Made by a program: the position numbers and the translations under genes. From Rhizophagus irregularis (taxonomy: Eukaryota): a stretch of 64,000 nt of DNA. Numbering within the stretch: the first letter of the stretch is position 1; every line of letters starts with the position of its first letter. Where the stretch lies: NCBI RefSeq assembly GCF_026210795.1, contig NC_089435.1, forward strand, positions 4,650,001 to 4,714,000. The letters are read 5' to 3'. A model generated the notes under the pieces. It ran no database searches, had not been told where the DNA came from, and worked only from the letters and a program-made list of their open reading frames with translations. Positions 15,442 through 51,136 of the stretch are shown here, one piece after another.

Positions 15442-18400
15442 ATGAGCAAAACAAAACAGTATGAAGTAACCCTTCTGGCCAAGGGAATTATTTCAGAAGA
15501 TTTACACTATGAAATACATGCACGAAATTGATGGAAACCACGCAAATTTGCTCAAACCAACTTTAATCCAATACCTTACCGACTATTTATGTCTGTTAAT
15601 TGTTGTCTTAACAGTAAAAATTTTGCAATAACAATTCTTAATGATGAGCAAACACAAAATCCATGTTTCCGTTGTGTTTGTGATGGTAAAGATTCTGGAA
15701 TTCAAGCGTCAGCGAGTGCAGCTATTAATAACATGTACATACAAATTTTTGGTAATAAAACAACAAAGTATTCAGGATTAATTGTTATGGGATTTGATAA
15801 TGAAGCAATTGTTCGTGAGTTAGTAGCTGATGTTTCATTTATTCCAATATTTATTTGTTTAGATAAAATAATAATTGTGGTTAGTAAAATTGGTGGTTCA
15901 TCTCGTGAAGGATATTATGGTGCCGGTCCAGGATATTTTTCTACACTTATAACAAAATATGCAGGCAAACAATCACTTTTTGTACAATCCATAGAAGATG
16001 AATGTAGTTTAGACATTTATAATGAAGGTGTTAAATTATACCATAATAAGAATACTACACCTAATAAAATTTGGGAAACTATTGATATTCACAAAAAATA
16101 TGATGGAGTGGCTTTATTCGGAATTACTGATCCATATGTTCAACAAAAATTGGAAGAACTGAATAAATTAGAAAAAAGTAAATTAGAAAAGAGTAAAAAT
16201 TTAATCACTTGTACAAGTGATAATTGGGAAAATATTGATATATTGAATCTTATATTTGAGCAAAATATAAAAAAACGTAAAATTGCTACTAGTACATTTT
16301 CAGATTGGTCAAACTTATTTACAAATTGGTATAAACAAACTAATACAATAATTCAATTTCCCACAATTTTATTTCAAATTTATCCAAATAATTACCAATT
16401 CTAAGAAAAAGAATTAAACGCGTGGTGAGCAATGTTTTGTGCCGCTGGTTGTACCAATATCACTCCACTTGTAAAAAAAAGCATATAATTGAATTTTGGA
16501 CAAAAGCATCAGATCCTTCGTCTGATAGGGATAATCTAGTAAAACTTTTTGAATCAGAAATGTTATTGGTAATGGAAAAGAAATCTCAACCTAATAGCGA
16601 AAGTGAAAAAATTTGGGAAAGTTTACAAAAAGCTTTAGAAGCAAATAAAAGAGGAGTTGATGGAAAAGTTAGGATTCTTTCAATAATTGCCAAAAATTTT
16701 ACATATAAAAAACTCAATGAGAAGTTTGGGGTAAAGTTAAAAATTATATTTATTGAATTTATTATAAATAAATCTTAAAAATAACTAAATACTTACATAT
16801 AGGTAGGAAATAATATAATTAATTCTGCACGAAAATATGCAAGACTTAATGGACCAGGAGCACCAAGCCTAATAAAACCCAAAAGAACTGTTAAACAAAT
16901 GTCTGAAATTAAAGAAAAGCAATTTTTAATGTTTTTTCAAGATCGAAGTATAGTTACGCAAAGTTCTTACCAGGTGGATAAGAATGGATCACCAATATTA
17001 TATATGCGTGATCAAAAAATCAAACTGTGGAAAAAATTTGAAGAAACTTTTCCTAATGGTATGAAAAAGACATCATTTTTGGGCCGATTAGCAAATTGTA
17101 ATAATATCAAATATCGGAATGATATAGGTGGACTTTGCCTTACCTGTAATGAATAAGGTTGCTTGTCTAAACCTCTTCAAAATCCTACGATTAGTTTCGT
17201 CAAAATTTTACTATAGATTTATTATAGTTTCGGCAGAGTTTCGGCAGTTTCAGCATTTATAATAAGTTTCGGCAGTTTCGCTATTCTCCAAAATTTCGCC
17301 AGTTTTTTAATATAACTTTAATATAGTTTCAGCAGAATTTCGCTTTTCGGTGAAACGCCATCTTGCCTAAACCCCTAGGTTTCGGCAAGCAACCTTAGTA
17401 ATGAATATGGCTATACTCCATTTGAGTCTTTAATAGCTATTGCACACAATATATTTTCATAAAAAGATCAGTTAGTAAGTAAAATTTTTAATAAACAAAT
17501 TATTTTAGTTTGAAAATATTATAATTTACCTTTTATTAATATTTTTAAAATAATGCATTGCGAAAAATTGACACTTTAAAGCGTCACTTGCATCGTGGTT
17601 ATGAAAGAGAATTGGCAGTTAATGCTGATGGTACAACACAACATAATCCCTGTATTTCTCATTGTTTACCATATGCCTTTGGAAAATGTTTGGAAAAACA
17701 TAAGTCACGATGCTCAGAGTGTGATAAATTTTTTGAATTTTTTGAATTTATGCACCCACATGTAAATGAAGATCAAGCAGCTTTTTTAGAAGAAATAAAA
17801 GAACATTTGCAGTATTTCTTAGCCCATACAACACGAAAAGTATACTTGAATGCTCAATTTAAAGCTACATTGGCCAATCTTGATGAGAATGGTGCATTAT
17901 TTATTGCTGATTACAAGATGAGAATTTTGCCAAGATCTGCTAGGGAAACTAAAGCAGAATTTTTTGGCAAACGTGGCTGGACTCTTCACACAATCCTAGT
18001 TTTTACAAAAAAAAATAATTGTGCAGAGTTAGATATACGAGCTTATGATCACTGGTCAACTGACACCAAGCAGGATGCTTGGTTTACTGCCTCCTCATTT
18101 GAAGCTGTTTTTGAAACAATAAAAAATAAACCAAAATGGATTAGAATAATTTCAGATAATGGGGCACATTACCATTCATCAGTACTTATGGCCATAGTTT
18201 CACATTGGAATGAATGGTATCAAATTGAGGTTTGTGATTGGCAATTTCTTGAACTGGGTGAAGCTAAAACAACCATTGATTTCCATCACGCTGCAGTAAG
18301 TACTATTGTTATAAAGCTATTGCAATAAATTTTACATTAAAATTACCTTTTTTTTAGATTTCTCATTCAATCAAACGATATATTCGGATTGGATATGATA

Positions 18401-22200: not shown

Positions 22201-22524
22201 ATTTTGACAAACTTCTCTCAGTTTACGATGTTCCTCTTTTGCCATGTACTTTTGACGCATCTACGTTGAATGATGATTCTGAGTACGAACCGTATGATTC
22301 TGATGATGACTTGCTTTTCTCCTTTTCATCTTTCGATGACTCTTCTTTTATGAGTCCTCTCTTAAAATCTATAATCTATTGTTTCTTTTTCGATCACCTT
22401 TCCTCTATTTTGCTTTGATCTTGGTCCTTTGGTAGCAGTTTCTACTATAATGTTTTCAAATGATATTCCTGAATATAAACCCTTTTTTATCAGCTTCTTT
22501 TTTGATTTTTCAAAATTTGAACGT

Positions 22525-24159
22525 TGTAGCCATAGATACTGAAGTAATCGCATAATATGGAGGAATAATATGGAATAAAAGATCAAACGATAGAAAGTCA
22601 CATGATTGGATAAAATTAACTGGAAAGGATAAACTTTTAGGAGAAGGAATGATCTACATGATGTAATGTTTATTAAATGATTAACGGAGAACCAATAGAT
22701 CAAGTAGGAAGTTGATCGATGTGGCTTAGCAACCAGTTTATCAAGTTCAACAATAGGAACAATTAGGAGGAGTAATCATAAGCCACAAATGATAAATCAT
22801 ATAAAAAGGAAGGATAGCGAATTAAAGGAACAAAAAAATAGGAACATGTAAAATATTGATGAACTGCAGCCGCAGTAGAAGAATAGCTGACGAGACGCAG
22901 TAGAAAAGATAGCACAGCCACAAAAGATGGATTTTTACGATATAATATTTGAAAGATTATTTTATTTTAAAGAAAAGATAGCACAGCCACAAAAGATGGA
23001 TCTTTACGATATAATATTTGAAAGATTATTTTATTTTAAAGAAAAGATAGCACAGCCACAAAAGATGGATCTTTACGATATAATTAAGGTTGCTTGTCTA
23101 AACCTCTTCAAAATCCTACGATTAGTTTCGTCAAAATTTTACTATAGATTTATTATAGTTTCGGCAGAGTTTCGGCAGTTTCGGCATTTATAATAAGTTT
23201 TGGCAGTTTCGCCTTTCTCCAAAGTTTCGCCAGTTTTTTAATATAACTTTAATATAGTTTCGGCAGAATTTCGCTTTTCGGCAAAACGCCATCTTGCCTA
23301 AACCCCTAGGTTTCGGCAAGCAACCTTAGATATAATATTTGAAAGATTATCTTATTTTAAAGAAAAGATAGCACAGCCACAAAAGATGGATCTTTACGAT
23401 ATAATATTTGAAAGATTATTTTATTTTAAAGAAAAGATAGCACAGCCACAAAAGATGGATTATATCTTTACGACATAATATTTGAAAGATTATTTTGAAG
23501 AAAAGATAGCGTATTAAAATAGTATAATATATTAGAAAAGATAATATATAAATAGCATATAAGATAGCGCATAAAAGGGAACACATAACATAAAATATTA
23601 GAAAGAAATAAGAAGTAAGAAAAGAAAGAATAAGAAAGTTAGTTTAAATAGGAGCGGAATGGGAGGTGAATTCCACAGTCGTCAGATACGATGTAAAACT
23701 TTAAGTAAATTAGTTAGTTGTGAATTTTATGAAGAATAAATAAAATACCTTTTATATGAAAATTAATTGTTTCGATTGTTTTTGTTACTATTTTCTTATG
23801 ATGAAAAAGTAATTTTGTTCAATTAACTGTTAGTAAAGCGTAATGTTATTTTAAAGGTAATAGGTTCGCCCTAAACTTTATTGTAATGTTCGCTTAATTA
23901 ATTTTAATTGGATAAATTCATGGTGAATTTAATGTCATAGCAAGAATTATGAAATAAATAAAATATAAACTTTCATAAAGAGAACTATCGTAAATTTGAA
24001 AGAAGAGAAAGGATGAAATATCGCGGCGAGAGCTATCGCAATTTGAAAGTTAAGTAGTAATAAAACTAAACCAAGCAAGAATATTAATATTTCGTGGAGA
24101 ACGAATATACGTTAAAGCAGGGAAGCTTGTTTACCGCCGGGTGGCAGACGGGGATGACA
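22525..24159 (+). repeat. 5' LTR (1383 bp plus a 252-bp MITE insertion)
   Basis: TGTAGCC...TGACA, near-identical to 34508-35890. Contains 69-bp tandem repeats. Confidence 0.97.
23085..23328 (+). mobile_element. 244-bp hAT-type MITE, copy 2, present in the 5' LTR only
   Basis: Same TIR as copy 1. TSD GATATAAT. Confidence 0.95.
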
Positions 24160-24162
24160 ATT

Positions 24163-24178
24163 TGGTGCATGCTCCGAG
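24163..24178 (+). promoter_or_regulatory. Primer-binding site, probably for tRNA-Gly
   Basis: TGGTGCATGCTCCGAG lies 3 nt after the LTR. Its complement ...GCATGCACCA resembles a tRNA-Gly 3' end. Confidence 0.75.
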
Positions 24179-24729
24179 AAAGGAAATGTTGACTTTGCGT
24201 CGACATTTTGACTATCTTCTTATAGTCAAGTACCTATGCGGTATTAAGAAGGAATCGGTCAACAACTAAGTGAATTGATCACTCGCGAAGGAAAAGATCG
24301 TTCTGATCATGGTACCGACGTGGTATTCCGAAGAATCTGAACTCAGAAAAAGAGGTGTTAGAATTAAAATATAATATTGGGAAAAAAGGTTGTAAGTACC
24401 TGAAAAACTTTAAAATGGGAACGGGCGAAATAGCGATATTGTACACCTACCTTAGGAATTATAAAAAGAAGGATGCGGTGATATGATGGAATATAATGAA
24501 CTCGTTTCAAAGTAATAGATTTGTTACAAGAATATCCGGAAAAGTATTGTAGTAAGTCACAAAAGTTGTCGTCTTTAAAGTTTTTGCGCTAATAATTGTA
24601 AAACCAAGAAATTAAGGAAGCCCTCGTAAGATGTTGTATTCTGGGAGGGGCACCATTGTATTTTGCAGATGCCAGAAGTTCCTGGGGATACAATGTTGTA
24701 ACGAAAAGCTGACGAGTAAACTATAAACT

Positions 24730-24824
24730 CAAGGGTTACGTGGGAACCTGTTACCAAAACACAAGGGTTGCATGGGAACCTATTTAAAACACAAGGGTTA
24801 CGTGGGAACCTATTACAAAAACAC
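24730..24824 (+). repeat. Three ~30-bp tandem repeats in the retroelement leader
   Basis: Unit CAAGGGTTACGTGGGAACCT.TT..AAAACA. Confidence 0.85.
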
Positions 24825-25190
24825 CGGCTGTGAATATAACTTCTTCAGATGGGAATCGAAATAATTGGACTCAGACGTGAGTGGAACATCTCCCTACTGA
24901 AAGCATTTTGAAAATGCGTAATTGAATTCACAAGGCAAAAAGAGAAACTATCATCGTGAGTATAACTTCTTCAGATAAAACTGAAAGCATTTAGGAAAAT
25001 GCGCAATTGAACTCACGAAAAGACGATGAACGTTATGGAATAATGCGAAATTTAGGAATATTTGCTGGTCAAATGATGAAATGTGAGTAACAAACCTTGA
25101 AACTACTATACTTCATTGGGAAGGTAAAGGCAAGCCAAGTATAGGTTATTAAATTGTAAAAGATAATAAATAAGAAGAAACACCGTTAAA

Positions 25191-25310
25191 TAAGTATAAA
25201 TGCGTGTGTCGCATAAGTATAAATGCGTGTGTCGCATAAGTATAGATGCGTGTGTCGCATAAGTGAAGATGCGTGTGTCGCATAAAGTATAATATGTTGT
25301 GTGTCGACAT
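25191..25310 (+). repeat. 23-bp tandem repeat, four copies plus one degenerate
   Basis: Unit TAAGTATAAATGCGTGTGTCGCA. Confidence 0.9.
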
Positions 25311-25957
25311 AATGGTTATAATAAGAGTTAGTACAAGATTAAACAAAGAAGATATTTTGCGTAATATTAAATATATAGATGTAAAGATTACATATATAAT
25401 GAAAAAGAACTAAAAATTCACGAACTTTAGAAGTTATGAGAATTTTGAAGTTCGTGAAATGCGAAAATTATAAATTTTGATGATAAAAGAAAATTTTGAG
25501 GCGCAGTAAAAACTTAGAAAATTTTTGAAATTTTTAGAATGCGCAGTAAAAACCTCCGCAGTCTGAGGAGATTGTGGACTTAGAATAATTTTTGAAATTT
25601 TAGGGCGCAGCAAAAATTAATGGTGAAATATGGCGCAGTAAATATATATATGAAGTTATGAAAGATAAAAATAGCAGAAGAAACTTGTGAAAATCAAAAA
25701 AAAAAAAGAGGATTTAAAGATTGAAAGATTAACATAAGAATATTATGAATAAGTAAAAGATTTAGAAAAAATAAGTTGTTAAATGAATATTCATAATGAA
25801 AGAAAGATTATACATTCAATATAGGTAATAGGAAAGGACAATATAGTAAAGGATGGTTAGAAGATCAAAATAGAAGCGATAAAAATGATATATAAGAGAG
25901 CGAAATTTCAATTTGAATTCTGGATGAATATTTATAATAATTTAATTAGAGTATACG

Positions 25958-28378
25958 ATGGAATGGTATTATCAATGGGAAAGTGAATATAGGACACATA
26001 AAGAAGAACATGAGTTAAGAACAGGAGAATTAGATGAATGTTTAAATTGTGAATTATGTCATCCAATAGTAGATGAACCAATAGTATTCAAGAAATTTTG
26101 GGACGCATTATTTAAGTTCGAAGATACAATAATAATATATAATAATGTAACGATCAAGGGAGTAATAGATTTATTAAGTATGAATAATTAGGAAAGAGAA
26201 GATACAATACATAAAGGAAAATGTAGGGACATAATGGATAGAATAACAGAATCAATAAGATATAGAATACAACCAAAAATGAAAGAAAAAGGATTACGAA
26301 CAATTATATTAGTAATTGTAAGAGATTGTATTGAAGGAGATTTAGAGAATGAAGTATTTGATAGATTAATTGGAAATCCTGAATTAATAGAACACAAATA
26401 TATTTTGGAAGATTGGGATGTTGAAAGAAGGTTTAAAAAATTTTGGCAATGGTACAAGATCACATCGAAAGAAGTTAAACCATTACGAGTAAAGATGGGA
26501 GCAATAAAGACATTCAGGGAATTACTTTATGAAGAAGAAGGAATAGCTACGAATGAGGAGAAAGTAAAAGAATTAATGTCCAATATGGAATATGGGAATA
26601 TAGACATAGAAAATGTTCACGAATATCACAGGAATATGGTACAAAAGATAATAAGAATATTTATAGATACTAGGGGCTTTACAAAAGAACCAGAAGATTC
26701 AGAAAGTGAAGATAGCTTAGAAAGTTATGAAATGAAAAAGAATTTTAATGGGAGTTTATATCTTAGATTTGAAAGATTCAGGTACTGGTGGAATGACAAA
26801 TATGAAGGTAAACGAATACATACATATCATGAAAATGATTCATTAGGATGGTTCGAGAAGATGTTATCTGAAGGAGAGAATTTGCAAAAAGATACTGTAA
26901 AGAAACTGACAGATAGTATGACATTTAAGGATAGCGAAGATATGTATGAAAAAGATCCTATTATAACAAGAATAGATGATGGAGTAATAGAATGGATTGT
27001 AACGGATTTAAAAGTAGTGATGGAAAGAACACAAAAATTTAAGTTAGTGGAGATAGAGCAAGGGGAAGATAATGAAATATATGATTCTGAAGAAGAAATA
27101 GAAATAATAGTAAAAGACAAAACGTGGGAGTTAAATGAAATAAGAATAGGATTAAGACAACTGATAGTGGATCCGAAAGAAAAACTCATCAGGGAAATGA
27201 TGAAATTTGGAATAAAAGAAAAGATAGAAACGGGAGTACTGTTAACATATGATTTTATAAGATATTATATTTTTCAGGAAAGGAGATTCGATAAGATTGA
27301 GGACATAAAGGAATGGATAGATTTGAGTACAAAAATATGTGGTAGATGCAATAAACAGAAATTAGATTATGTGATATCAGAAGAAGATGGCAGATGTGAA
27401 GAATGTAACCAGGAAATACAGGAAGATGAACAAGATGAATTAACAGAATTAAAAAACAACTTAGAAAAGTTAGGATACAAAATAGATGTATCGGAAATTC
27501 AAAGAATAAAGAATTTTGGAGTTAATAATCGAATAATAGTAACAGAAGAATTCATAGAAAGGTATATAAGAATGATAGAATTAGAAGATAGAGAGTTAAG
27601 AAAAGAGGTGCACAAATGGTTAAATGAGAACACAACTTGGTGCGAAAGATGTGAAATAAGATGGATGAATGATATGTTTAGATTAGGAGGAACTGTATGC
27701 AAAGATTGTGAAGAAGAAGATATTGATGAAATTGATGATCGGGTAAAAAGATTACAGAAGATTTTTGAAGATATTGGAGTAATGATGATTGAAGAGGAAT
27801 TGTTAAGATTAACTAGTATGGGATATACAGATGGAGAAATTTTAGATAAAGAATTTATCGAAATCTTTCAAGAAAATAAAAATGAGTCAGAAAAAGAACT
27901 AAAGAAAAAGTTAGATAAGTTGTTGAAAGAACAAGCAGGAGTAATAGAAAGTGAAGAAAGTGGTGAAAAGAGTGATAATGAAGAATCAGAAGAAGATAAT
28001 ACGGATAATTCAGAAAAGATTGGAGAAATATTAAGTCCAGAAGAATATGAAATATGGGATGGAAGTGATGAAGATTTTGAAGAAGAAGAGTCTGAAAATG
28101 AAATCGAAAATGTTATAAATACAGGAGGTTTTGGTCTGAATCAAAATTCAGATTCGAATAGTTCATTAAATTTTAAAAATTCTGACACAGAAAGTGAAAT
28201 ATCTGATTACAATTTACAAGAATTATTTCAAGAGAATATAGTAAATATGGCAAATGAAGCACAAATAAGAAGAATAATGGAGAATGCTATGGAATTGGCA
28301 CCAAATGCATTAGATAATGCGTTAGGAGCAGGACAGACTTTGGCGGATAGGATTCAGACTGCAGGAATGGGGGAATAG
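25958..28378 (+). CDS. Acidic CxxC-containing N-terminal extension (ORF0) running into the start of Gag; one in-frame stop
   Basis: ORFs 25958-26191 and 26234-28378 share a frame, split by TAG at 26189. Motifs CLNCELC, CGRC..CEEC and CERC..CKDC. Ends at a G-run frameshift just before the Gag core. Confidence 0.75.
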
Positions 28379-28383
28379 TAGGT

Positions 28384-29871
28384 ATGCCAACTTTTAGTGG
28401 AAAAGAGGATGAAGATATTAATGATTGGATTAGACAATTTGAGATAGCATTTACAGTAAGTGGACGACCAGAAGGAAATGTTGGAGGAGGTGTATGTAGA
28501 CAAAATAAGGCAAACATAGCTATAACTTGTTTAAGAGGAATTGCATTACAATGGTATAATGAGGAAAAAGAAAGGGTAGCAGCTAATTTAGTGAATTGGT
28601 GTGATCATAATGAGGACAGGAATTTAAAAGGAAGATTAATCGACAGATTTACTAGGAATGATGTTCAAAGAAGAAAGATGTCAGAATTAACAAGAATTAA
28701 ACAGGGAACAAATGAAAGTGTCGAAGAATATACTAGAAGATTTAGGTCAATATTAAGAGTTGCAACTAGAGGTCATGCGTTAGAGGATTTATATCAAGTG
28801 AATTATTTTATTCAAGGGTTAGACGCCATGATAGGTTATCATGTTAGGAAAAGTAATCCGACGAATCTGAATGATGCAGTTAACGAAGCAAAAAGTGAAG
28901 AGAAAGCGAGAGATGAGTTGATGATGAAAACAACAGGGTTGGATATGAAACGAGTAGGACAGGAGAAAAACATGGAAGAAATTTTGAAAGAAGAGACAAA
29001 TAAGTATAAAGGAATGAATCCAATTGCGAAAGAGTTACAAAATAAAGAAGTTAAAAGTGATGAATGGGATGAGTTAATTAATGGAATGAAAAGGTTGGAA
29101 GCACATGTAATGCAGAGAAATGAAGCATATGTAATCCAAAGGAATGGGAATGATAGGAGACCGATCGGAAATAATAATGTCCAAAGAAATAATATGAACT
29201 GGGATAGAATGACTTGTTATACATGTGGAAGAAAAGGACATACTTCTAGAGTTTGTAGGGAAGGTCAAAGAAGATCATATGGAGGAAATAATAAAGGGTC
29301 ATATAGCCAAAATAATCAAGTTAATTACTTTGATGAAGAATATTATGGTGGAGGATATAATGTGTATAATATGGAATATAATGATGAATATGATGGATAT
29401 AATGAGGGTGATGGATATGATAACTATAATAATAATGGATTTGATGGATACGAAGTGAATAACTATGAAGATGAGGAAAGATACGATATGTTTCCAGTAC
29501 CACCTAGAAAGAGTGAAAGAAATAAAGACAAGGTTATGAACGATGAAAGAGATAGAAGAAGAAATGCACAATGGCAAGGACAACAACAAAAAGCACAGGG
29601 GAATAATAAGAGAGGTTTTACGAAAGAACAATTACAGAAAGGATATGAAACTAGAAAGAATAATAATAGGTGTCACAATTGTGGACAACAAGGACATTTT
29701 GCTAGAGAATGTACAAACGAGAAAGTGAAGTTAAATCGAGATATACCAAACGTTGGAGATTTTGATCCATTCGAACAATTTGTAAATTCAAGTGTACCAA
29801 TTAATTGGGGACAAATGATGAATGAAAGACCAGAAGTAAGGAAGAAATTATTAAATGGTTTGAGATATTGA
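28384..29871 (+). CDS. gag: Gag (capsid-like domain plus two CCHC zinc knuckles)
   Basis: PTFSG..EDINDWI, IKQG.NESVEEY..RF, CYTCGRKGHTSRVC and CHNCGQQGHFAREC. Confidence 0.93.
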   Translation: MPTFSGKEDEDINDWIRQFEIAFTVSGRPEGNVGGGVCRQNKANIAITCLRGIALQWYNEEKERVAANLVNWCDHNEDRNLKGRLIDRFTRNDVQRRKMSELTRIKQGTNESVEEYTRRFRSILRVATRGHALEDLYQVNYFIQGLDAMIGYHVRKSNPTNLNDAVNEAKSEEKARDELMMKTTGLDMKRVGQEKNMEEILKEETNKYKGMNPIAKELQNKEVKSDEWDELINGMKRLEAHVMQRNEAYVIQRNGNDRRPIGNNNVQRNNMNWDRMTCYTCGRKGHTSRVCREGQRRSYGGNNKGSYSQNNQVNYFDEEYYGGGYNVYNMEYNDEYDGYNEGDGYDNYNNNGFDGYEVNNYEDEERYDMFPVPPRKSERNKDKVMNDERDRRRNAQWQGQQQKAQGNNKRGFTKEQLQKGYETRKNNNRCHNCGQQGHFARECTNEKVKLNRDIPNVGDFDPFEQFVNSSVPINWGQMMNERPEVRKKLLNGLRY

Positions 29872-29900
29872 CTACACTCGGGGGAATTGAAGAATATTAA

Positions 29901-30476
29901 TCAGAAAGAAGAAAATCACAAGCAACAAGATGTAATATAATAATTGAAGGAAAAATGATTAGAGCATCAGTTGATACAGGAGCAGGACCTTCAGTAATAA
30001 CGAATGAACTGAGAAAAGAATTAAATATACCAATAACGAGGAAAAGTAATGTCGTATTAACAATAGCAGATGGAAATAACATAGCTTCATTAGGAAGAGT
30101 GGAAATTAGAATAGAAATTGATGAAAATTTAGAAATACCTTTAGAGTTCGAAGTAATTGACTCGAGAAGAAAAGATTTGATATTAGGAACTGATTTATTA
30201 AGATATGGGATAATAAATATGAAAGAAGGTCTGTTAACAATAGAATGGGATAATGGAATATATGAAATACCAATTGATTTTAGAGGAAAGAAAAATGTTG
30301 AATTTGAGGAGTCAGAGAATAGGGGTGAATTTAATGAAGATCCAAAGAATATAGATGATATAGATGGCAATTCTAGTGAAGAGTCAGAGGGTGAAGATGA
30401 ATATGAGGAGATGGAAAAAGAAGAGTTGTTGTCGATTGTAAAAACTGATAGAGAAAAGAGAGATGAGGAAAAATGA
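29901..30476 (+). CDS. Retroviral-type aspartic protease
   Basis: Active site ASVDTGA, flap IADG, and LILGTD. Confidence 0.92.
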   Translation, partial: SERRKSQATRCNIIIEGKMIRASVDTGAGPSVITNELRKELNIPITRKSNVVLTIADGNNIASLGRVEIRIEIDENLEIPLEFEVIDSRRKDLILGTDLLRYGIINMKEGLLTIEWDNGIYEIPIDFRGKKNVEFEESENRGEFNEDPKNIDDIDGNSSEESEGEDEYEEMEKEELLSIVKTDREKRDEEK

Positions 30477-32806
30477 ATGGTCTTGGCTTTCTGAATGAAG
30501 GAGAGACGGTAAAGATGCTAAATGAGAGCAAAGAAGAAAAATTTGAAAAGAAAACACATCTGGGAGAAATGAGCGATGAGGAGAGAATAGCATTTAAAAA
30601 ATTGATAAGGGAATATGAAGATATATTTGAATATGACGAAGAGAAACTGGGAAGGATAAATACAGTTAAACATGAGATAATAATTGAAGAAAATCAAGGA
30701 CCAATAGCACAAAAGAGATATAAAGAAACTGATGAAAAAGGAAAGTTTATAAAGAAAGAAATTGAACAATTGTTAAAGATGGGGAAGATAAGAGAATCAT
30801 GGAGTAATTGGGCATCTCCAGTAACATTAGCAGGAAAGAAAACTGGAAATTATAGATTTTGTATAGATTATAGAAAGCTAAATAATGTGACAAAGTCAGA
30901 TGAATATCCTTTACCCCGGATAGACGAATTGTTAGAAAAATTTAGAAAGGGAAGTTGGTTCACAAGTTTGGACTTAGTAGCGGGATATCATCAAGTGGAA
31001 ATGGCAGAAGAAGATAAAGAGAAAACAGCATTCATTTGTTCACAAGGATTATATGAATACAATGTTATGCCATTTGGATTGAAGAATGCACCAGGAACAT
31101 TTCAGAGATTAATGGATAAAATATTAAAGGAATATATAGGAGAATTTGTTACAGTGTATTTAGATGATATAATGATTTATTCAGAAGATTTTGAGGGACA
31201 TATAGAACATGTAGATAAAGTACTGAGTAAATTGAGAGAGAATAATATGATTGTAAAGTTGAAGAAATGTCAGTTTGGATTGAGAAATATAAATTTCTTA
31301 GGGCATATAGTAGGAAGAGATGGATTGCGACCGGATAAAGAGAAAGTTGAGAAGATAGAAAATATGAGGAGGCCGAAAACTGTTACAGAAGTAAGATCAT
31401 TTTTAGGATTATATTCATATTATAGGAGATTTATAAAAGGTTTTTCGAAAATAGCAAAACCTTTGCTTAACTTAACGAGAAAGAATGAAAAGTTTGAATG
31501 GAAAGAAGAACAACAAAAAGCATTTGACGTATTGAGGACAAAATTGACAGAAAATCCAATTTTAGTATATCCGGACTTCAGTAGAGAATTTATATTAATA
31601 ACTGATGGATCTAAGATAGGATTAGGAGCAGTGTTAGCTCAAATGAATGAAGAAAATAAAGAGGTTGTAATAGCTTACGCAAGTAGGAGTACAGTTGGGG
31701 CAGAAAAGAATTATCCACCAACAGAATTGGAATGCTTAGCAGTATTTTGGGGAATACAACATTTTCAGAAATATTTGGTAGGAAGGAAATTTATAGTGAT
31801 AACAGATCACGCAGCATTAAAAGGATTAACAGATGGAAAGGAACAAACGGGAAGGAGAGCAAGATGGGTAATGAAATTACAACAATTTGACTTTAAAATA
31901 GTACATAGAAGTGGAAAGAAAATTAAAAATGCAGATGGATTATCAAGACTGAGATTTAAAGAAAAAGAAACAGAAAGGAACGAGAATCAAGAAATAACAA
32001 AAATAGAAAGTAATAAGGGGAAATTGAGATATATCAAATTTAGGAATAAATGGTATAATGCTAAAAGATTTAAAGGAAGATGGGATGATGAAAAATATTT
32101 TACCGATAAAGAAGCAATACTTTTGAATTTGGAGGAAAAGACAGAAAAAGAATTATTAGAGAAATTGGGAAGAGAAAATAAGCCACAAGTTATTATAATC
32201 GACGGAGTGGATGGATTAGGAAAAACAAGTATAGTACAAAATTTAATTAAAGAGTGGGAAAAACAAGGATTAAAAGTAAGATTTAATACATTCAAAAGGA
32301 GAAGAAAAGACAAAGGTGAATTTTATGAATCAAAGTTAGAAACAGAATGGAAATTTAGAAAGGAAGTAGTAGAACAAATAAACAGAAGAATGTTAGAATA
32401 TGATGGAGATACAGATATAATAATTCTAGACAAATCGCCATATTGCGAATATTATTATCAGAAGACGAAAAGTTTCAACAGAGGATTAATTATTCCACAT
32501 GGGAACTATGAGATGGAAAAAGAAATATTCAGATTAAAAGAAACAATAGATGAATCAATAGTGATATTTTTGGAAAAAGATGGCAATGTATGTTGAAAAA
32601 ATTATATTGGAAGAGAAACGAAGAAAATGGAGAAATCGTCATACCCAACATTAAAGAAAAACGAATATTTGGACATGGTTAAAATGTTTAAGGAAAACCA
32701 GGATGTATACAAAGATACCAAAAGATACAGTCAAATTGAAGTTAGGAACGACGATAGTAGTTGGAGAAAAGTATATAAGGAGTTAGAAAAACACCAAAGA
32801 GCTTAG
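30473..32806 (+). CDS. pol: Reverse transcriptase-RNase H fused to a P-loop nucleoside/nucleotide kinase-like domain; premature TGA at 32594
   Basis: RT: RFCIDYRKLN, MPFGLKNAP, YLDD. RNaseH: TDGS..GLGAVL, ELE, TDH, NADGLSR. Then IIIDGVDGLGKTS and LDKSPYCE. The frame stays open from 32597 to 32806. Confidence 0.93.
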
Positions 32807-32821
32807 AATTATATTTTCAAA

Positions 32822-33163
32822 ATGGTATTAGTAAATCGTTATGAGAATTGGTTTCTTACATATCGAGTAAAGGTCGACAAGATATGGAAAGTAACTATAA
32901 AAGAAGAAGGGAACAAAACAATTATCCGTTTAAGGATTGAAGAGGGAGAAAACTTCATACTAGTAGATGTACACATTATAATAAGACTAAAAGAGAAAAA
33001 GGTGAAATTAATTATGGAAGATAAAGACAATATGATAATAGAAGAAAGATTAATGGAAAAAGGATTAGGATGGGTACGATCTAAATTGATTATAGGAAAT
33101 GAAAAATATATAAGAAGGATAGAAATACCAAGGATCAAAAATAAATCGAGAGATAAAAATTAA
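32822..33163 (+). CDS. Hypothetical 113-aa protein between pol and the integrase
   Basis: ATG-started ORF 15 nt after the kinase stop, with the same purine-rich bias as pol. Confidence 0.55.
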   Translation: MVLVNRYENWFLTYRVKVDKIWKVTIKEEGNKTIIRLRIEEGENFILVDVHIIIRLKEKKVKLIMEDKDNMIIEERLMEKGLGWVRSKLIIGNEKYIRRIEIPRIKNKSRDKN

Positions 33164-33289
33164 AAAATATATATGGAACAGTTATCACGACGCTTTATTT
33201 TTACAATACCTTAATTTTTACAACACTTCAACCCTTTACAACATTTCAACCTTTTACAACACTTTAGCTTTTAGAATTACAACATAGAC

Positions 33290-34477
33290 ATGGAAGAGGA
33301 AGAATATAATAAGATAGCGAGAAATATCAACAATGAACGGGAATATGAAATTATAGGAGGATTAATTTACAAAATAAAAGATGGGAAAAGACTAAGAGTG
33401 ATAAGAAAATACGAATTTGAAGGATTAATGTACATAGCTCACGATCATGAATTATCAGGACATTTTGGAATAGATGCAACGTATAATAGGATCAAAGATA
33501 AATATTATTGGAAAGGAATGAGAAAAGATGTGGAAGCTTATGTCAAATCATGTAATAATTGTCAGAGAAGAGGGAAACCAATAGGAAAACATGAACTGAA
33601 TGTAATCAAAGTTATAGAACCATTTTATCAAATTGGGATTGATGTAGTGGGACCATTACCAGTAACAAAGAGAAATAATAGATATATAGTTACAGCGATG
33701 GATTATTTTACAAAATGGCCTGAAGCAAAGGCATTGGAAACAGCAGATGCTAAGGAAATTGCAAGATTTATTTATGAAGATATAATATGTAGGCATGGAT
33801 GTCCAAAGAAGATATTGAGTGATAGAGGAAGTCATTTCAATAATAAATTAGTGAAATCATTAATGGAGGAATTTCAGATAAAACATAACTTTTCGACGCC
33901 TTATCATCCAAAAACTAATGGGTTAATAGAAAGATTTAATAAGACATTATGTGAATCATTAGCAAAGCTAAGTAATATCGAAGATTGGGATTTGAAAGTA
34001 CCAGGAGTATTGTTCGCGTATCGAACTAAAAGGAATGATTCAACGAAAATGGAACCAGGATATTTAATATATGGGAGACAAATGAAGACATTATTAGATT
34101 TAGAAGATAAGGAAATTACCATGGCAGAGAGAGTTAATGAGTTGATCGAAGGATTACCAAACATTAGGAATCAAGCTAAAGAAAATGTCAGGAAATCTCA
34201 GGAAAAACAAAAATCGTACCATGATAAAAAGAATAGAATAAAGCAGAAATTACAAATCAAAGATAAAGTACTATATTATGACGTAGCAAAAGAGAAACAA
34301 TGGTCTGAAAAGTTAGAAGAAAAATGGAAAGGACCTTATTATGTACATGAGATAATTTCTAAAGGATCATACAGAATTAAAACTATGGAAGGGAAGATAT
34401 TGAAAACACCAGTAAATGGTGAATTACTGAAAGAATATATTGATAGGACAAATTTTGAAGTAATAGTTCGAATTTGA
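33290..34477 (+). CDS. Integrase (HHCC, DDE, GPY/F) in a stand-alone ORF
   Basis: H..GHFG..CNNCQR, IGIDVVGP, SDRGSHF, YHPKTNGLIERFN and WKGPY. No chromodomain. Confidence 0.95.
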   Translation: MEEEEYNKIARNINNEREYEIIGGLIYKIKDGKRLRVIRKYEFEGLMYIAHDHELSGHFGIDATYNRIKDKYYWKGMRKDVEAYVKSCNNCQRRGKPIGKHELNVIKVIEPFYQIGIDVVGPLPVTKRNNRYIVTAMDYFTKWPEAKALETADAKEIARFIYEDIICRHGCPKKILSDRGSHFNNKLVKSLMEEFQIKHNFSTPYHPKTNGLIERFNKTLCESLAKLSNIEDWDLKVPGVLFAYRTKRNDSTKMEPGYLIYGRQMKTLLDLEDKEITMAERVNELIEGLPNIRNQAKENVRKSQEKQKSYHDKKNRIKQKLQIKDKVLYYDVAKEKQWSEKLEEKWKGPYYVHEIISKGSYRIKTMEGKILKTPVNGELLKEYIDRTNFEVIVRI

Positions 34478-34493
34478 TGGGACTCAAATTTTA

Positions 34494-34506
34494 GGTGGGG
34501 GGCAAA
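34494..34506 (+). promoter_or_regulatory. Polypurine tract
   Basis: AGGTGGGGGCAAA immediately before the 3' LTR. Confidence 0.65.
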
Positions 34507-34507
34507 C

Positions 34508-35890
34508 TGTAGCCATAGATACTGAAGTAATCGCATAATATGGAGGAATAATATGGAATAAAAGATCAAACGATAGAAAGTCACATGATTGGATAAAATT
34601 AACCGGAAAGGATAAACTTTTAGGAGAAGGAATGATCTACATGATGTAATGTTTATTAAATGATTAACGGAGAACCAATAGATCAAGTAGGGAGTTGATC
34701 GATGTGGTTTAGCAACCAGTTTATCAAGTTCAACAATAGGAACAATTAGGAGGAGTAATCATAAGCCACAAATGATAAATCATATAAAAAGGAAGGATAG
34801 CAAATTAAAGGAACAAAAAAATAGGAACATGTAAAATATTGATGAACTGCAGCCGCAGTAGAAGAATAGCTAACGAGACGCAGTAGAAAAGATAGCACAG
34901 CCACAAAAGATGGATCTTTACGATATAATATTTGAAAGATTATTTTATTTTAAAGAAAAGATAGCACAGCCACAAAAGATGGATCTTTACGATATAATAT
35001 TTGAAAGATTATTTTATTTTAAAGAAAAGATAGCACAGCCACAAAAGATGGATCTTTACGATATAATATTTGAAAGATTATCTTATTTTAAAGAAAAGAT
35101 AGCACAGCCACAAAAGATGGATCTTTACGATATAATATTTGAAAGATTATTTTATTTTAAAGAAAAGATAGCACAGCCACAAAAGATGGATTATATCTTT
35201 ACGACATAATATTTGAAAGATTATTTTGAAGAAAAGATAGCGTATTAAAATAGTATAACATATTAGAAAAGATAATATATAAATAGCATATAAGATAGCG
35301 CATAAAAGGGAACACATAACATAAAATATTAGAAAGAAATAAGAAGTAAGAAAAGAAAGAATAAGAAAGTTGGTTTAAATAGGAGCGGAATGGGAGGTGA
35401 ATTCCACAGTCGTCAGATACGATGTAAAACTTTAAGTAAATTAGTTAGTTGTGAATTTTATGAAGAATAAATAAAATACCTTTTATATGAAAATTAATTG
35501 TTTCGATTGTTTTTGTTACTATTTTCTTATGATGAAAAAGTAATTTTGTTCAATTAACTGTTAGTAAAGCGTAATGTTATTTTAAAGGTAATAGGTTCGC
35601 CCTAAACTTTATTGTAATGTTCGCTTAATTAATTTTAATTGGATAAATTCATGGTGAATTTAATGTCATAGCAAGAATTATGAAATGAATAAAATATAAA
35701 CTTTCGTAAAGAGAACTATCGTAAATTTGAAAGAAGAGAAAGGATGAAATATCGTGGCGAGAGCTATCGCAATTTGAAAGTTAAGTAGTAATAAAACTAA
35801 ACCAAGCAAGAATATTAATGTTTCGTGGAGAACGAATATACGTTAAAGCAGGGAAGCTTGTTTACCGCCGGGTGGCAGACGGGGGTGACA
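34508..35890 (+). repeat. 3' LTR (1383 bp)
   Basis: TGTAGCC...TGACA, with just over four copies of a 69-bp unit at ~34885-35240. Confidence 0.97.
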
Positions 35891-37320
35891 ACGTCATTAT
35901 AAATGGAAAATTTATCGTTCCTCTCTTCTTCCTGTCATGATATTTATCAGTTGGATATTTCTCACCTGTTTTCTTTGGTTTCGGCTTCACTTAAGAATTA
36001 TGGATAGTCTTCTTAAACTGACCTTTTTTTGTTCGATTAATAGGTTTATTAACCTATTTCCTTCTTGGCCTGGTTAGATTACTTTTTTTTTTTAATTTTG
36101 TTTGTTTGGGTCATTTGTTTGATTTGTAGTTGTGTAATTATTTAAGGCGTGTGGTATTTCTTAGTTTGCCATCCCCTTCTATATGATCTATAGTTTTATT
36201 TTATAATTCTCCCTTCTTTATTATTTTGCTTTATTTACAACTATTTTATTTTCTTTTTGCTTTTCTTCGTTAAGAATTTTCTGTAGGTAATATTTTTCTG
36301 GTTTTTCTAACCTTTTTGTAGCTTTTGCTTTTATTACCTTTTATTGGTTTTGTTAGTTTCAGTTTCTTTTTATAAGAAACTATTTAGTCACCTCACAGTG
36401 ATTTTATATTAATCTGGAGGATGTAGTGCCTTTATTAATGATTGTTTATAGTTTTTTTTAGAGCTTTAACCTTCGTTTTGTTTTGTACTATGAGATTATT
36501 CTTTATTTCTTTATTTGTTTTTTTTTTTGAATTTATATTTCTTTTTGATTTGTATATTTCTATAAAAATAAATAAAAAACGTCATAAAGACCATTTGCAT
36601 AACAGTAAAAGGATAAAATTAAAAACTAAAACAACTCTCTCCCGTTACTCTTATAACAATATTGTTACAAAAGAAATTTTGATATATCCATATATTGTTT
36701 ATACCTATAATTATTTCTTCTCTTTTTTTTCTCTTGCTCAGGCCGATGACCTCTTCCTACGACTTCTCAACCTTGAGTTGGGAAGAAGTTTTTTTTAAAC
36801 TTCACGAGGTTGAGGACCTCTGCGCTAAGTGTATTCTCAAACAAAAAACTTTATTAGCCCATTTCAACTCTCTTTCTGATAGCTCTTCCGCTAAATCATG
36901 TGTTTACTTGGCTTTTGGCCCTCTCCACCAACTAGACGACTCTCTTTTTGAACAAAAATGCCTTCTATACTTACGTTTAGACTTTCTTTCGTTTACTGCA
37001 AATTCAAAAAATGATATCACAATTCTCTCTGCTAACGATCATCCATCATATGATGATTCAGTAAATAATGATCCATCTCCTCTTCCATTAACTGTTTGGA
37101 CTTCTAACCATGAGGCTAATCCTAATGTTATCTTAGATTTATGCATCCCTTCTTTACAACGTACCAATCATTTTTCAGTTGCTATATTTGGCGCACTCCT
37201 AAATTTCTTTGTAAATACTGACGTCTTTTCTATGATTTCCCTGCATCTTTCAAATGTGCACAGAAATTTAAAAAGAATTTATTTTTTACACGTTTGGTCT
37301 TGTCCTCTTCTACAATACGT

Positions 37321-38629
37321 TGTCACCCCCGTCTGCCACCCGGCGGTAAACAAGGTTCCCTGCTTCTGTTATATGTGCTCTCAGCGAAACATTAACATTC
37401 TTGCTTGGTTTAGTTTTATTACTACTTAACTTTCAAATTGCGATAGCTCTCGCCACGATATTTCATCCATTATCTTCTTTCAAAATACGATAGTTCTCTT
37501 TACAAAAGTTTATATTTTATTCATTTCATAATTCTTGTTATGACATTAAATTCACCATGAATTTGTCCAATTAAAATTAATTAAGCGAACATTACAGTAA
37601 AGTTTAGGGCGAACCTATTACCTTTAAAATAACATTACGCTTTACTAACAATTAATTAAACAAAATTACTTTTTCATCATAAGAAAATAGTAACAAAAAC
37701 AATCGAAACAATTAATTTTCATATAAAGGGTATTTTATTTATTCTTCATAAAATTCACAATTAACTAATTTACTTAAAGTTTTACATCGTATCTGACGAC
37801 TGTGGAATTCACCTCCCATCCCGCTCCTATTTAAACCAACTTTCTTATTCTTTCTTTTCCTACTTCTTATTTCTTTCTAATATTTTATATGTTATCTTTT
37901 ATGCGCTATCTTATATGCTATTTTATATGTTATCTTTTCTAATATGTTATACTATTTTAATATGCTATCTTTTCTTTAAAATAATCTTTCGCATATTATG
38001 TCGTAAAGATATAATCCATCTTTTGTGGCTGTGCTATCTTTTCTTTAAAATGAAATAATCTTTCAAATATTATATCGTAAAGATCCATCTTTTGTGGCTG
38101 TGCTATCTTTTCTTTAAAATAAAATAATCTTTCAAATATTATATCGTAAAGATCCATCTTTTGTGGCTGTGCTATCTTTTCTTTAAAATAAAATAATCTT
38201 TCAAATATTATATCATAAAGATCCATCTTTTGTGGCTGTGCTATCTTTTCTACTGCGTCTCGTCAGCTATTCTTCTACTGCGGCTGCAGTTCATCAATAT
38301 TTTACATGTTCCTATTTTTTTTGTTCCTTTAATTCGCTATCCTTCCTTTTTATATGATTTATCATTTGTGGCTTATGATTACTCCTCCTAATTGTTCCTA
38401 TTGTTGAACTTGATAAACTTGTTGCTAAGCCACATCGATCAACTCCCCACTTGATCTATTGGTTCTCCGTTAATCATTTAATAAACATTACATCATGTAG
38501 ATCATTCCTTCTCCTAAAAGTTTATCCTTTCCGGTTAATTTCATCCAATCATGTGACTTTCTATCGTTTGATCTTTTATTCCATATTATTCCTCCATATT
38601 ATACGATTACTTCAGTATCTATGGCTACA
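37321..38629 (-). mobile_element. Solo LTR of the same Gypsy family, inverted
   Basis: Reverse complement of the LTR, 1309 bp, with one fewer 69-bp unit. TSD ACGT (37317-37320, 38630-38633). Confidence 0.96.
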
Positions 38630-44169: not shown

Positions 44170-45300
44170 TGAATATCCTATGTATGTAGAAGGTAAATTA
44201 ACTAAAATATTGCTAAATTCTTCTTTGGTTGGCATTGTTTCTTTAAGCAATAAAGTTTTAATATTTTTTTTTCTTCATTTATTATAACTATTATTTTACG
44301 TTTAGGAGCAAGATCTATATCATTTAATTGTTGAAAATTTTCATTAATTGGTACTGAACCAGATGCTGTGCTTTCATTATTTCCCTCAAGTACTTTTCTT
44401 TTTTGTAAAGATACTATTGATTTATTTATCAATTTTATATCTGTTTTAACTACTTTTAAATGTTATCTTTCTTTTGTATTTATTTGTTCAGTTTAATAAC
44501 TTCTTGACAATAAACTTCCTTTATTCTTTTTAATCCTTTATTATAAGCATTATTTAACTTTTCCAATTTTTTTTGAATTAATCATGATTAAGGTTGCTTG
44601 TCTAAACCTCTTCAAAATCCTACGATTAGTTTCATCAAAATTTTACTATAGATTTATTATAGTTTTGGCAGAGTTTTGGCAGTTTTGGCATTTATAATAA
44701 GTTTCGGCAGTTTCGCCTTTCTCCAAAGTTTCGCCAGTTTTTTAATATAACTTTAATATAGTTTCGGCAGAATTTCACTTTTCGGCGAAACGCCATCTTG
44801 CCTAAACTCCTAGGTTTCAGCAAGCAACCTTAATCATGATGGTGAATTATTTTTAAAAACCTTGTATTCTATATAATTACTTATTTCAAATATTTTTATT
44901 AGGTTTTCTACCAATTTATATAGAGAGTCAATTCTATTATCAACTTTACGATTTTTTCTATTATAATTATTAGAATCTAAAATTCATTTAATAATACATC
45001 AATTCTCTCCTTTTCTTCCTAAGTTGCCCTAATTTGAAGATTTAGATTTTCTTGATTAATGACATTTTCAATTATATTTTTTTTAACATACCTAACTCCA
45101 TATATTTCTAAAGTTTTATCAAATTCTGAATAGTGACCTTTTTTTGTTAAATTAATAGAAGCATAATATTGAAGTTTTTTTTCAAGTTGAGGTACTTTTT
45201 AAGGATTAACAAAAATGAGCCACAGATGTCATATAGTTATTTTTGCTAATAGCTGGAAAAAGAGGAGCGAAAGCTGTTAGACTATCTTTAGAATCATCAT
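44170..45300 (-). pseudogene. Decayed coding remnant, possibly the C-terminus of an Academ-like transposase
   Basis: Manual translation gives SLTAFAPLFPAISKNNYMTSVAHF/..YYASINLTKKGHYSEFDKTLEIYGVRYVKKNI, with stops, frameshifts and a MITE insertion. The family call is tentative. Confidence 0.45.
44589..44832 (+). mobile_element. 244-bp hAT-type MITE, copy 3
   Basis: Same TIR. TSD ATCATGAT. Confidence 0.95.
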
Positions 45301-48900: not shown

Positions 48901-49387
48901 AATTATTATTCCTACACACAGCCTTTTTAGTGACACATGGATTAATATTGTTAAAGATGTAGTTAAAAAAAGAGTTAAAATAGACAAAAATTATTTACAA
49001 GTACAACGTTTAAGCAAGATCCAAAATAGCATAGAAAAACGTTGCAACATTATATACTCAGATATTCCTAAATGGCTACTTTCCACACAAGATGTTGTTA
49101 AGGAGCACATTATTATTGATTGAGCAGTAATATCCAACGAGAATGAAAGTGTTAAACTAGCGCTTGATCCTAATACAATTAGAACCTATACAAAAGATAC
49201 TTTTGCAGGAATTTTACAAAAACACAATACTAAATCGATAGAGCAAGACATTTTCTGGAACAATATATATAGGCCAAAAGGTAAATTTACTGAATGTATA
49301 GCTAATTTAATGGATGAGATAATGTTAGAAGAATGGCAGCAAACACTTGAACAGGTGAACATAAACTCAGTGCCAGGTCCTTCAGGC

Positions 49388-49631
49388 TAAGGTTGCTTGC
49401 CGAAACCTAGGGGTTTAGGCAAGATGGCATTTCGCCGAAAAGCGAAATTCTGCCAAAACTATATTAAAGTTATATTAAAAAACTGGCGAAACTTTGGAGA
49501 AAGGCGAAACTGCCGAAACTTATTATAAATGCCGAAACTGCCAAAACTCTGCCAAAACTATAATAAATCTATAGTAAAATTTTGACGAAACTAATCGTAG
49601 GATTTTGAAGAGGTTTAGACAAGCAACCTTA
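49388..49631 (-). mobile_element. 244-bp hAT-type MITE, copy 4 (inverted), inside the LINE RT region
   Basis: Same TIR. TSD CTTCAGG(C/T). Confidence 0.95.
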
Positions 49632-51136
49632 CTTCAGGTATTAGATATACTATAATCAAATACATTTCAAACAAATTCAACTCCATCATATTAAAGATCA
49701 TTAATTTGTCCTTGAAAATAGAAGTTGTACCAGACCAGTGGAAACAGTCACTTATTTATCCGATTCCAAACCCGCAAAAATTTGATTATATTTTGGCCAA
49801 CATGCGTCCCATAGTATTACTAGATAATATCAGGAAATCTGTTACTAAATTATTGACAAACCGATTAAGTACAATTTTGATATATAATAAAGTTTTACGC
49901 AGATTGAATTTTTGCAGTTTTAAGGGAGAAGACATAGCAATACTGTTACATTTAATGAATGATATAATTGAAGATGCAAGGGAAAATGGAAAAGAACTCT
50001 AGGTGGTAAACCAAGATATGATGAAAGCATACGATTTAGTTAGCCTAAAGAGTTTACAGCTTGCATTAAAAAGGCTAGACATACCAGAAAAATTTATTTT
50101 ATAGATTACAGGATTATTCAAAAATAGACAAATGAGTGTAATTACAGCATTTGGCCCTAGTCCAACCTTTATAGAGGGAGACGGTATTGACCAGAGTGAT
50201 GCGATTTCACCTTTACCCTGGAGAATTTTTTACGATTCTTTGCTTGTAACTATTCAACAAGCATGCAATCAACAACAAGGATATGAAATGGTAAATACTT
50301 GGCCATTGGATATTCAGGATCGATCAACATAGCAACAATATAGACTAAGGGTACCAGTTATAGCCTATATAAATGATACGAGTTATTTGGATAGTTTGGG
50401 GGATAAAATTCAGGCATCAATTAATATAGCCACACAATTCTATTATTTCCATGATGTAGATATAAATGGGAAAAAGTCTGAGCTGATGGTAATAAATCCT
50501 AAAGTACCTAAAGATGAATTATATATCACTATTGGATATGACAACTCAAAGGTCTAAGCCACAGATAAAGAGATACGGTATTTAGGATACTATTTCTCTT
50601 CTTCCAATTTAAGGAAAAGATCAATCAAAAGAATCAAGGATATAATTGAAAAATTTTTGAATCCTATTAGAAGAAAACGTATTACAGTAGAACATATTGC
50701 ATATCTTATTAATCACGTTCTTATCCCAAGAGTGGTATATGTGGCCCAATTAATGACATTATCAGAAAATGAATGGAATCTTTTGTTTACTCCAGTGATC
50801 AAGTTAGTTAGGCAGATATGTAGGTTGTCTAGAAGTTATCCAACATCAGCAATATATCATCAATACATCTTAGGAATTAGTAATTCATGAAATCAAATAT
50901 GTGCAAATCAGATCGCTGCTTTTTTATATCTAATAAATAGTAATTCACCAACATCTAGATCTATAATGATAAGATGTAGGACTGCACAGTTGCAATTGGC
51001 CATATATGACAATATTTTTGAACATGAATCAGGATCATTATTTCTAGGACATCAAGAAGCAAAATCTAACCTAAGTCTATATAATATTATTATAGCCCAG
51101 AAATTAAATATTATCATACAACAAGATTACATAAAT

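Follow-up and report, generated by a model that had tools for sequence, protein, structure and literature searches.

How is an integrase made, and how is it matched with the cDNA, when Pol does not carry it? In Ty3/Gypsy elements and retroviruses, integrase enters the particle within Pol, and a clade without Pol-borne integrase raises this question directly. The locus considered here lies in a window of 64,000 nucleotides (the whole stretch of DNA that was analysed) from the arbuscular mycorrhizal fungus Rhizophagus irregularis. A preliminary description had noted a pol stop at 32806, an extra ORF, a pyrimidine-rich repeat and an intact integrase (IN) ORF in succession, and had proposed that IN is made from a spliced or subgenomic RNA or by re-initiation.

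The window holds a full-length Ty3/Gypsy LTR retrotransposon, spanning 22525-35890, with two LTRs that are ~99% identical (98.9% over 560 nt and 99.2% over 832 nt). Its ends are marked by the following features:

22521..22524 (left) and 35891-35894 (right): target-site duplication ACGT, 4 bp, taken from the sequence
22525..24159, + strand: 5′ LTR with TG...CA ends, split by an insert of ~245 bp at 23085-23328
24163..24178, + strand: primer-binding-site (PBS)-like stretch starting TGG, 3 nt past the LTR, its role judged from position
34493..34507, + strand: polypurine tract, clear from the letters themselves
34508..35890, + strand: 3′ LTR

The element thus has the two LTRs, the TG...CA ends and the target-site duplication that characterise Metaviridae. 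Pfam recovered the Ty3/Gypsy domain order (gag, PR, RT, RH, IN), and the reverse transcriptase is of the Ty3/Gypsy type, with the Ty3 RT as its top solved match (E 4e-101) and the next kinds far below. At the IN C-terminus, Pfam gave no chromodomain match up to E 0.1, so that the element does not display this chromovirus trait, and an Rfam scan of the element returned nothing credible. The closest named proteins are those of Rhizophagus irregularis itself, with up to 95% identity for the kinase-like domain and up to 99% for ORF X, both described below. The window copy carries private stops at 32594-32596 and 26189-26191, plus likely frameshifts; it is damaged and probably inactive.

No second internal copy of the element was found within the window, which otherwise holds only a solo LTR of the same family (37317-38629, - strand). 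Within the LTRs of the element, a 69-bp unit is tandemly repeated, in varying numbers of copies. The ~245 bp insert of the 5′ LTR has three further copies in the window (17149-17408, 44584-44832 and 49387-49634); these repeats are 96-97% identical and MITE-like. Also present are hAT-type transposase remnants (zf-BED, hAT RNase-H fold) at 2777-4615 and an ORF with an RNase H domain at 52188-53114, possibly of non-LTR element origin.

The part of the element behind RNase H, where its layout departs from that of Ty3, comprises:

32012..32806, + strand: deoxynucleoside/thymidylate-kinase-like domain, fused to RNase H, with a P-loop at 32204-32227
32822..33163, + strand: passenger ORF X, 113 aa, from ATG 32822 to TAA 33161-33163, following TAG 32804-32806
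33173..33214, + strand: mini-ORF of 13 codons, starting 9 nt past the ORF X stop
33193..33266, + strand: G-free, C/A/U-rich unstructured spacer with four TTTACAAYA units
33290..34477, + strand: free-standing integrase with H2C2 and rve, starting at its own conserved Met; 395 aa, intact

The first of these, a domain of ~260 aa between RNase H and the 32806 stop, had been overlooked. Its scores against the thymidylate-kinase and deoxynucleoside kinase (dNK) families of Pfam are weak and below the cut-offs. A relative, P0025, matches the PHROG thymidylate kinase at E 2e-13, and its structure model (pLDDT 90) matches Giardia deoxyadenosine kinase (dAK; best E 9e-7), thymidylate kinases and dCK, with an identity to the solved kinase members of at most 18%. 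From the model, we predict an NMP-kinase fold with an N-terminal P-loop, belonging to the dNK/thymidylate kinase superfamily. The domain contains a DKSPY motif where D/E-R-S is usual in dNK and thymidylate kinases, and within the same loci it is conserved about as well as RT and IN.

A profile search of this domain against 1.84 billion representatives gave 79 matches, and four of the 16 that were scanned (P0152, P0154, P0177 and P0195), all more distant relatives, are fusions with a NUDIX hydrolase. No relative appeared among the viral contigs scanned with the kinase profile and for IN, or among the prokaryote genomes scanned. The domain occurs in more than one arrangement: as a stand-alone ORF of ~263 aa in L016, L017, L021 and L022, and joined to IN in a family of 593-aa gene models (the P0051 cluster, 47 members), with RT still separate. 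Identity between L011 and the window is 65% for RT and 61% for IN, but 88% for the N-terminal part of the kinase, which suggests module exchange between lineages. Another locus has a 39-nt G-free, C/A-rich stretch (L001:411-449) before a stand-alone kinase ORF; the ORF upstream of it is not RT/RNase H.

Is the separation of IN from Pol a property of the family or of this copy? In the window, the RT frame first halts at TGA 32594-32596. This stop is missing in all four contig sets from sister copies, which have another base there at full depth; since it is private to the window copy, the stop at 32804-32806 is that of the family. The preliminary description's pol stop at 32806 is therefore right for the family, but not for the window copy, whose frame ends earlier. 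Of 22 metagenome loci that we examined, 17 reach IN, the contigs of the other five ending short of it. All 17 encode IN as a separate ORF with the same starting Met and have a stop between kinase and IN; the canonical Ty3/Gypsy arrangement, with IN inside the Pol polyprotein frame, is found neither in the window nor in any of them. Where IN could be aligned (15 of the 17), it is 52-84% identical to that of the window.

Protein collections agree with this picture. Among 58 longer kinase-bearing proteins, RT/RH is present in 37 and IN in five, and none has both; in all 29 RT-bearing kinase proteins that have the terminal motif, the chain ends no more than 30 residues from it. In a search of 61 longer IN relatives, which is by itself weak evidence of absence, the best joined RT-RH-IN chain was P0069 (55% identity), a gene model patched together without part of RT and with pieces of the kinase and of a passenger ORF in it. 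The remaining joined RT-RH-IN proteins reach no more than 46% identity. In an IN tree of 43 rows, rooted at the midpoint only, 15 split INs and four gene models form one clade (branch 99/98) against 24 long relatives chosen from the 61; L004, L007 and L012 were omitted because their IN is too short. On this tree, the split INs share a single origin.

Sister copies have the same layout. In them, the 32806 stop is swapped from TAG to TAA, and the variants listed with a share of at least 15% leave the IN ATG and both ends of ORF X (start and stop) untouched. Contigs of the X20 set bridge ORF X to the spacer and the spacer to IN. The 113-aa ORF and the spacer are kept, and three of four runs with coverage of ORF X show the split; none of the sister copies showed a continuous RT-RH-IN frame. 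The split layout is thus strongly supported as real and clade-wide rather than a product of decay. The uncoupling of IN from pol and the multi-cistronic layout, both claimed at the outset, are borne out by these data, as are the 113-aa ORF behind the 32806 stop, from ATG 32822 to TAA 33161-33163, and the intact 395-aa IN ORF from ATG 33290 to 34477. Nevertheless, IN does not always stand alone, as the P0051 cluster joins it to the kinase in one gene model.

The junction between kinase and IN takes two forms. In nine of the 17 relatives, the kinase stop lies almost on the IN ATG, with gaps of -11, -8, +3, -4, -1, -4, -4, 0 and +1 nt; three of these nine loci are near-identical (92-99%). In the other eight, a passenger ORF of 33-139 aa occupies the junction, close to both neighbours. 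One kind of passenger is an F-box protein (L015:670-1089, with a Pfam score above the cut-off, and L014:945-1128), and at least three more small kinds occur in the slot, with lengths of 47-52 aa (L003, L004, L005, L007 and L013), 81 aa (L002 and L012) and 33 aa (L009). Of these small passengers of 33-81 aa, none of those scanned had a convincing family match.

ORF X is the passenger of the window lineage, with relatives down to 62% identity, and is annotated in R. irregularis as many hypothetical proteins. Among the cluster members listed, in two main clusters, 17 of 20 share the same end residue. ORF X gave no convincing match in Pfam, PHROG, PDB sequences or Atlas; a low-confidence model (pLDDT 59) predicts it to be beta-rich and found no Foldseek match up to E 0.001. 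Only seven of 22 differences among sister copies are synonymous, so ORF X may be under weak constraint.

Between ORF X and IN, the window copy has a gap of 126 nt, the longest seen. It opens with the 13-codon mini-ORF, which had also escaped notice; no ATG follows between 33176 and the IN start. The TTTACAAYA units of the spacer begin at 33200, 33217, 33235 and 33253. Four pyrimidine-rich repeats had been described here with a period of ~20 bp; there are indeed four, but their period is 17-18 nt. The accompanying switch from purine to pyrimidine proved correct (the purine fraction falls from ~0.7 to 0.34 in 33226-33275), and so did the TTTTAG that ends at 33274, ahead of IN ATG 33290; the TAG in it is a stop codon in phase with IN. 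The G-free run measures 74 nt, compared with a maximum of 49 and a mean of 32.8 in 500 shuffles of the element interior, and the spacer folds worse than all of 200 shuffles (z +2.85). The TTTACAAYA 9-mer is not over-represented across the window (five found, six expected), and it is the clustering that stands out. Outside the window copy, the repeat spacer was seen only in L002, where the passenger before it is a different one and a mini-ORF, here of 20 codons, again stands at its head. We consider it a lineage-specific add-on of the window copy and L002, not the defining feature of the clade.

On the explanation that we favour, and whose probability we put at about even, termination-reinitiation on the long genomic RNA yields IN as a free-standing protein, encoded behind an RT-RNase H-kinase ORF and optional passengers. 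After the kinase ORF, ribosomes would resume at whichever ATG comes next close by, one ORF at a time. In the window sub-lineage, they would relay through the 13-codon mini-ORF and then scan the unstructured G-free leader to the IN ATG. IN would reach the cDNA without being a Gag-Pol passenger, through RNA tethering or in trans, and the kinase, if the modelled fold is right, may boost the deoxynucleotide supply for reverse transcription.

Reinitiation is favoured by the tight packing of stops and starts, which often leaves no room between ORFs, and by the several kinds of passenger that all stay tightly packed. Of 29 stop-to-ATG junctions scored, 23 fall within -30 to +10 nt. With near-identical loci collapsed, five of seven kinase-to-IN gaps lie within -4 to +3, where 30% would be expected (p=0.03). 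The exact -4/-1 overlaps are a different matter: they account for eight of the 29 junctions (28%), which does not clearly exceed the background of 20% for all stop triplets in the loci, and given this background we rejected exact AUGA/UAAUG overlaps as proof of coupling. Such an overlap is absent from the ORF X-to-IN junction of the window. Five IN starts were folded, with a tool that cannot predict pseudoknots, and none showed a SART1-type hairpin downstream. Fungal ribosomes are described as performing stop/restart on victorivirus RNA (PMC6631646). In its length, its CAA content and the absence of stems, the window spacer is like the TMV omega leader; that leader, ~70 nt long, CAA-rich and free of stable stem-loops, is reported to support internal initiation and scanning in vitro (PMC3963034).

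The main rival, which we judge unlikely, places an internal promoter inside the upstream ORF, giving a subgenomic IN mRNA with the G-free repeat as its 5′ leader. A TATATA at about 33168-33173, ~25 nt upstream of the G-free tract, would fit such a promoter equally well, and the leader is unstructured. The fungal element Tca2 provides a precedent, with a minor internal promoter at its gag-pol junction, although its pol protein is described as still following the LTR promoter (PMC2194720). However, nine of the 17 relatives have no intergenic space, and new passengers inserted at the site stay tightly packed on both sides. RNA-seq showed no cluster of starts at 33200, at a depth of ~1x that is too low for a test.

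It is improbable that IN is instead made from a spliced RNA, in the manner of foamy viruses, with an acceptor at TTTTAG 33274 (or TAG 33268). Here, a pyrimidine tract and a YAG do lie 15 nt upstream of the IN ATG, an NCBI gene model, P0064, uses an acceptor in the spacer (as a prediction), and foamy-virus Pol is known to arise from a spliced RNA (PMC7828637). Yet none of the 17 relatives has a pyrimidine tract and YAG within 60 nt of the IN ATG, and no joint or loose end at 33268-33290 appeared in four raw RNA-type runs of low depth or among those listed in the four contig sets. Across 11 kb, four RNA-seq runs yielded 137, 127, 130 and 5 reads, which came from both strands and showed no joints; this depth, ~1x, cannot decide the matter. 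The missing acceptors in the relatives, together with the lack of a junction at this depth, make splicing unlikely as the mechanism of the family. Among the routes initially proposed, splicing at 33274 as a family mechanism thus finds no support, while re-initiation gains from the packing. One X15 contig joins 32689 to 33343, skipping 653 nt with ends AA..GA, and is not a canonical intron.

A direct entry of ribosomes on the genomic RNA, with the G-free repeat acting as an omega-like cap-independent entry site, is in our view just as improbable as splicing. The 74-nt tract is G-free, unstructured and CAA-rich, L002 has a homologue of it after another passenger ORF, and the in vitro internal initiation on the TMV omega leader (PMC3963034) would offer a model. 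Nevertheless, none of the 17 relatives that extend into IN has this tract ahead of the integrase, and so it cannot be the basic mechanism of the family. Finally, the element could be an ordinary one with a single pol, of which the window copy alone has decayed or taken up an insertion, giving the stops, ORF X and the spacer. This reading is hardly credible and largely refuted. The window copy does have private stops (32594-32596 and 26189) and likely frameshifts, but the split is common to 17 of 17 relatives and, in three of four runs with coverage of ORF X, to sister copies; the 32806 stop is replaced by another stop and the IN Met is conserved.

Termination-reinitiation at IN may not be the only recoding event in the element. 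The region upstream of RNase H comprises:

25958..28378, + strand: long acidic ORF1, its frame broken by a stop at 26189-26191
28351..29871, + strand: gag, with Retrotrans_gag and CCHC zinc knuckles, ending TGA-CTA
29901..30476, + strand: aspartic protease ORF, in a frame different from that of RT
30480..30507, + strand: predicted hairpin at the PR/RT boundary, z -2.28, also in L011 and L017
30515..31960, + strand: reverse transcriptase and RNase H

UGA-CUA is a readthrough context. The bases TGA CTA CAC TCG G, from the gag stop onwards, are identical in the window (29869-29881) and L011 (L011:372-384), and in L011 gag and protease share one frame, parted only by the TGA. This suggests that the gag stop is a readthrough site; the window protease, which is out of frame shortly past the gag stop, is likely damaged. 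At the protease/RT boundary, a GTCT...AGAC hairpin is conserved in the window (30480-30507), L011:894-918 and L017 (about 63-90), with one compensatory pair among these three sequences only. RT lies in the -1 frame at this hairpin, and its frame has no usual Met in L017 or in the gene model P0057, hinting at a programmed frameshift rather than re-initiation at this boundary. From the TGA-CTA gag stop and the PR/RT hairpin, with signals in two and three sequences respectively, the element may use readthrough, frameshifting and reinitiation in turn. ORF1, of ~800 aa with CxxC pairs, had no Pfam or PHROG match; it is out of frame with gag in the window and joined to gag in P0057, and is a candidate trans-acting factor.

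Taken together, the architecture is well supported, and a split IN on a Ty3/Gypsy element departs from the rule that IN resides in Pol. The broader proposal, that a retrotransposon clade of arbuscular mycorrhizal (AM) fungi is operon-like, with coupled termination-reinitiation, a freed IN, a mobile kinase and a slot for the capture of small genes, we advance tentatively, as somewhat short of an even chance. According to a review, retroviruses and LTR elements use frameshifting, and stop-start coupling belongs to non-LTR elements; if the coupling is true, the clade would be a counter-example to this rule (PMC5902531). With the kinase, as predicted from the model, the known cargo of retrotransposons would come to include an enzyme of nucleotide supply, and the passenger slot gives orphan genes a way to multiply in the genomes of these fungi. 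Gene predictors join these ORFs through predicted introns (P0069 and P0057), which hides the architecture.

In a search of the openly accessible literature, we found no description of a separate IN ORF or of such a kinase in these elements, and no paper pairing a deoxynucleoside/thymidylate-kinase-like fold with a retrotransposon. In the accessible portion of PMC3248453, which surveys LTR elements of fungi, the word 'kinase' does not occur. Work on the transposons of R. irregularis notes a recent Gypsy expansion, and its accessible text does not describe a separate-IN layout (bioRxiv 10.1101/2021.03.30.436303). Repeat libraries and supplements of AM-fungal genomes could already list the family. 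A three-ORF layout in Dictyostelium Skipper, considered as a parallel, was set aside, as the accessible portions of the literature examined did not bear it out.

Among known systems, Ty3 is the obvious point of reference. The element shares with it the LTRs, target-site duplication, PBS-like site, polypurine tract, CCHC gag and PR-RT-RH-IN order, and its RT is nearest to that of Ty3. In Ty3, IN arises within Pol, following a single gag-pol frameshift (PMC5911963), whereas the window IN has its own ORF and Met, with a kinase-like domain after RNase H and passengers before IN. Foamy viruses also make an enzyme protein apart from Gag, which then needs its own packaging route; there, however, splicing yields the RNA for the whole of Pol, from which IN is then cleaved (PMC7828637). 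In the clade described here, IN alone is separate, and there is no conserved acceptor.

Caulimoviruses rely on the viral TAV protein and are not known to have LTRs or an integrase. Like the clade, caulimoviruses such as CaMV have a polyprotein split into consecutive ORFs on one RNA, with accessory ORFs gained, and the split is made with the help of TAV, as reviewed in PMC5902531. No TAV-like protein was identified in the window element, whose ORF1 and ORF X have no family match. Captured enzymes offer a second parallel. Some retroviral pol genes carry a dUTPase. Methyltransferases have been captured by retrotransposons (PMC5890265), and the element resembles such retroelements in bearing an accessory enzyme in or next to pol, its cargo being a deoxynucleoside/thymidylate-kinase-like fold.

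The closest likenesses in translation are to the victorivirus HvV190S, in which the start of the downstream enzyme ORF coincides with or adjoins the stop of the ORF before it (AUGA/UAAUG), also in fungi (PMC6631646), and to the non-LTR element SART1, whose downstream ORF is described as reached by stop/restart (PMC5902531). Both use a fixed overlap together with an upstream pseudoknot or a downstream hairpin. In contrast, the gaps of the present clade range between -28 and +126 nt, and as many as three ORFs follow one another in a chain.
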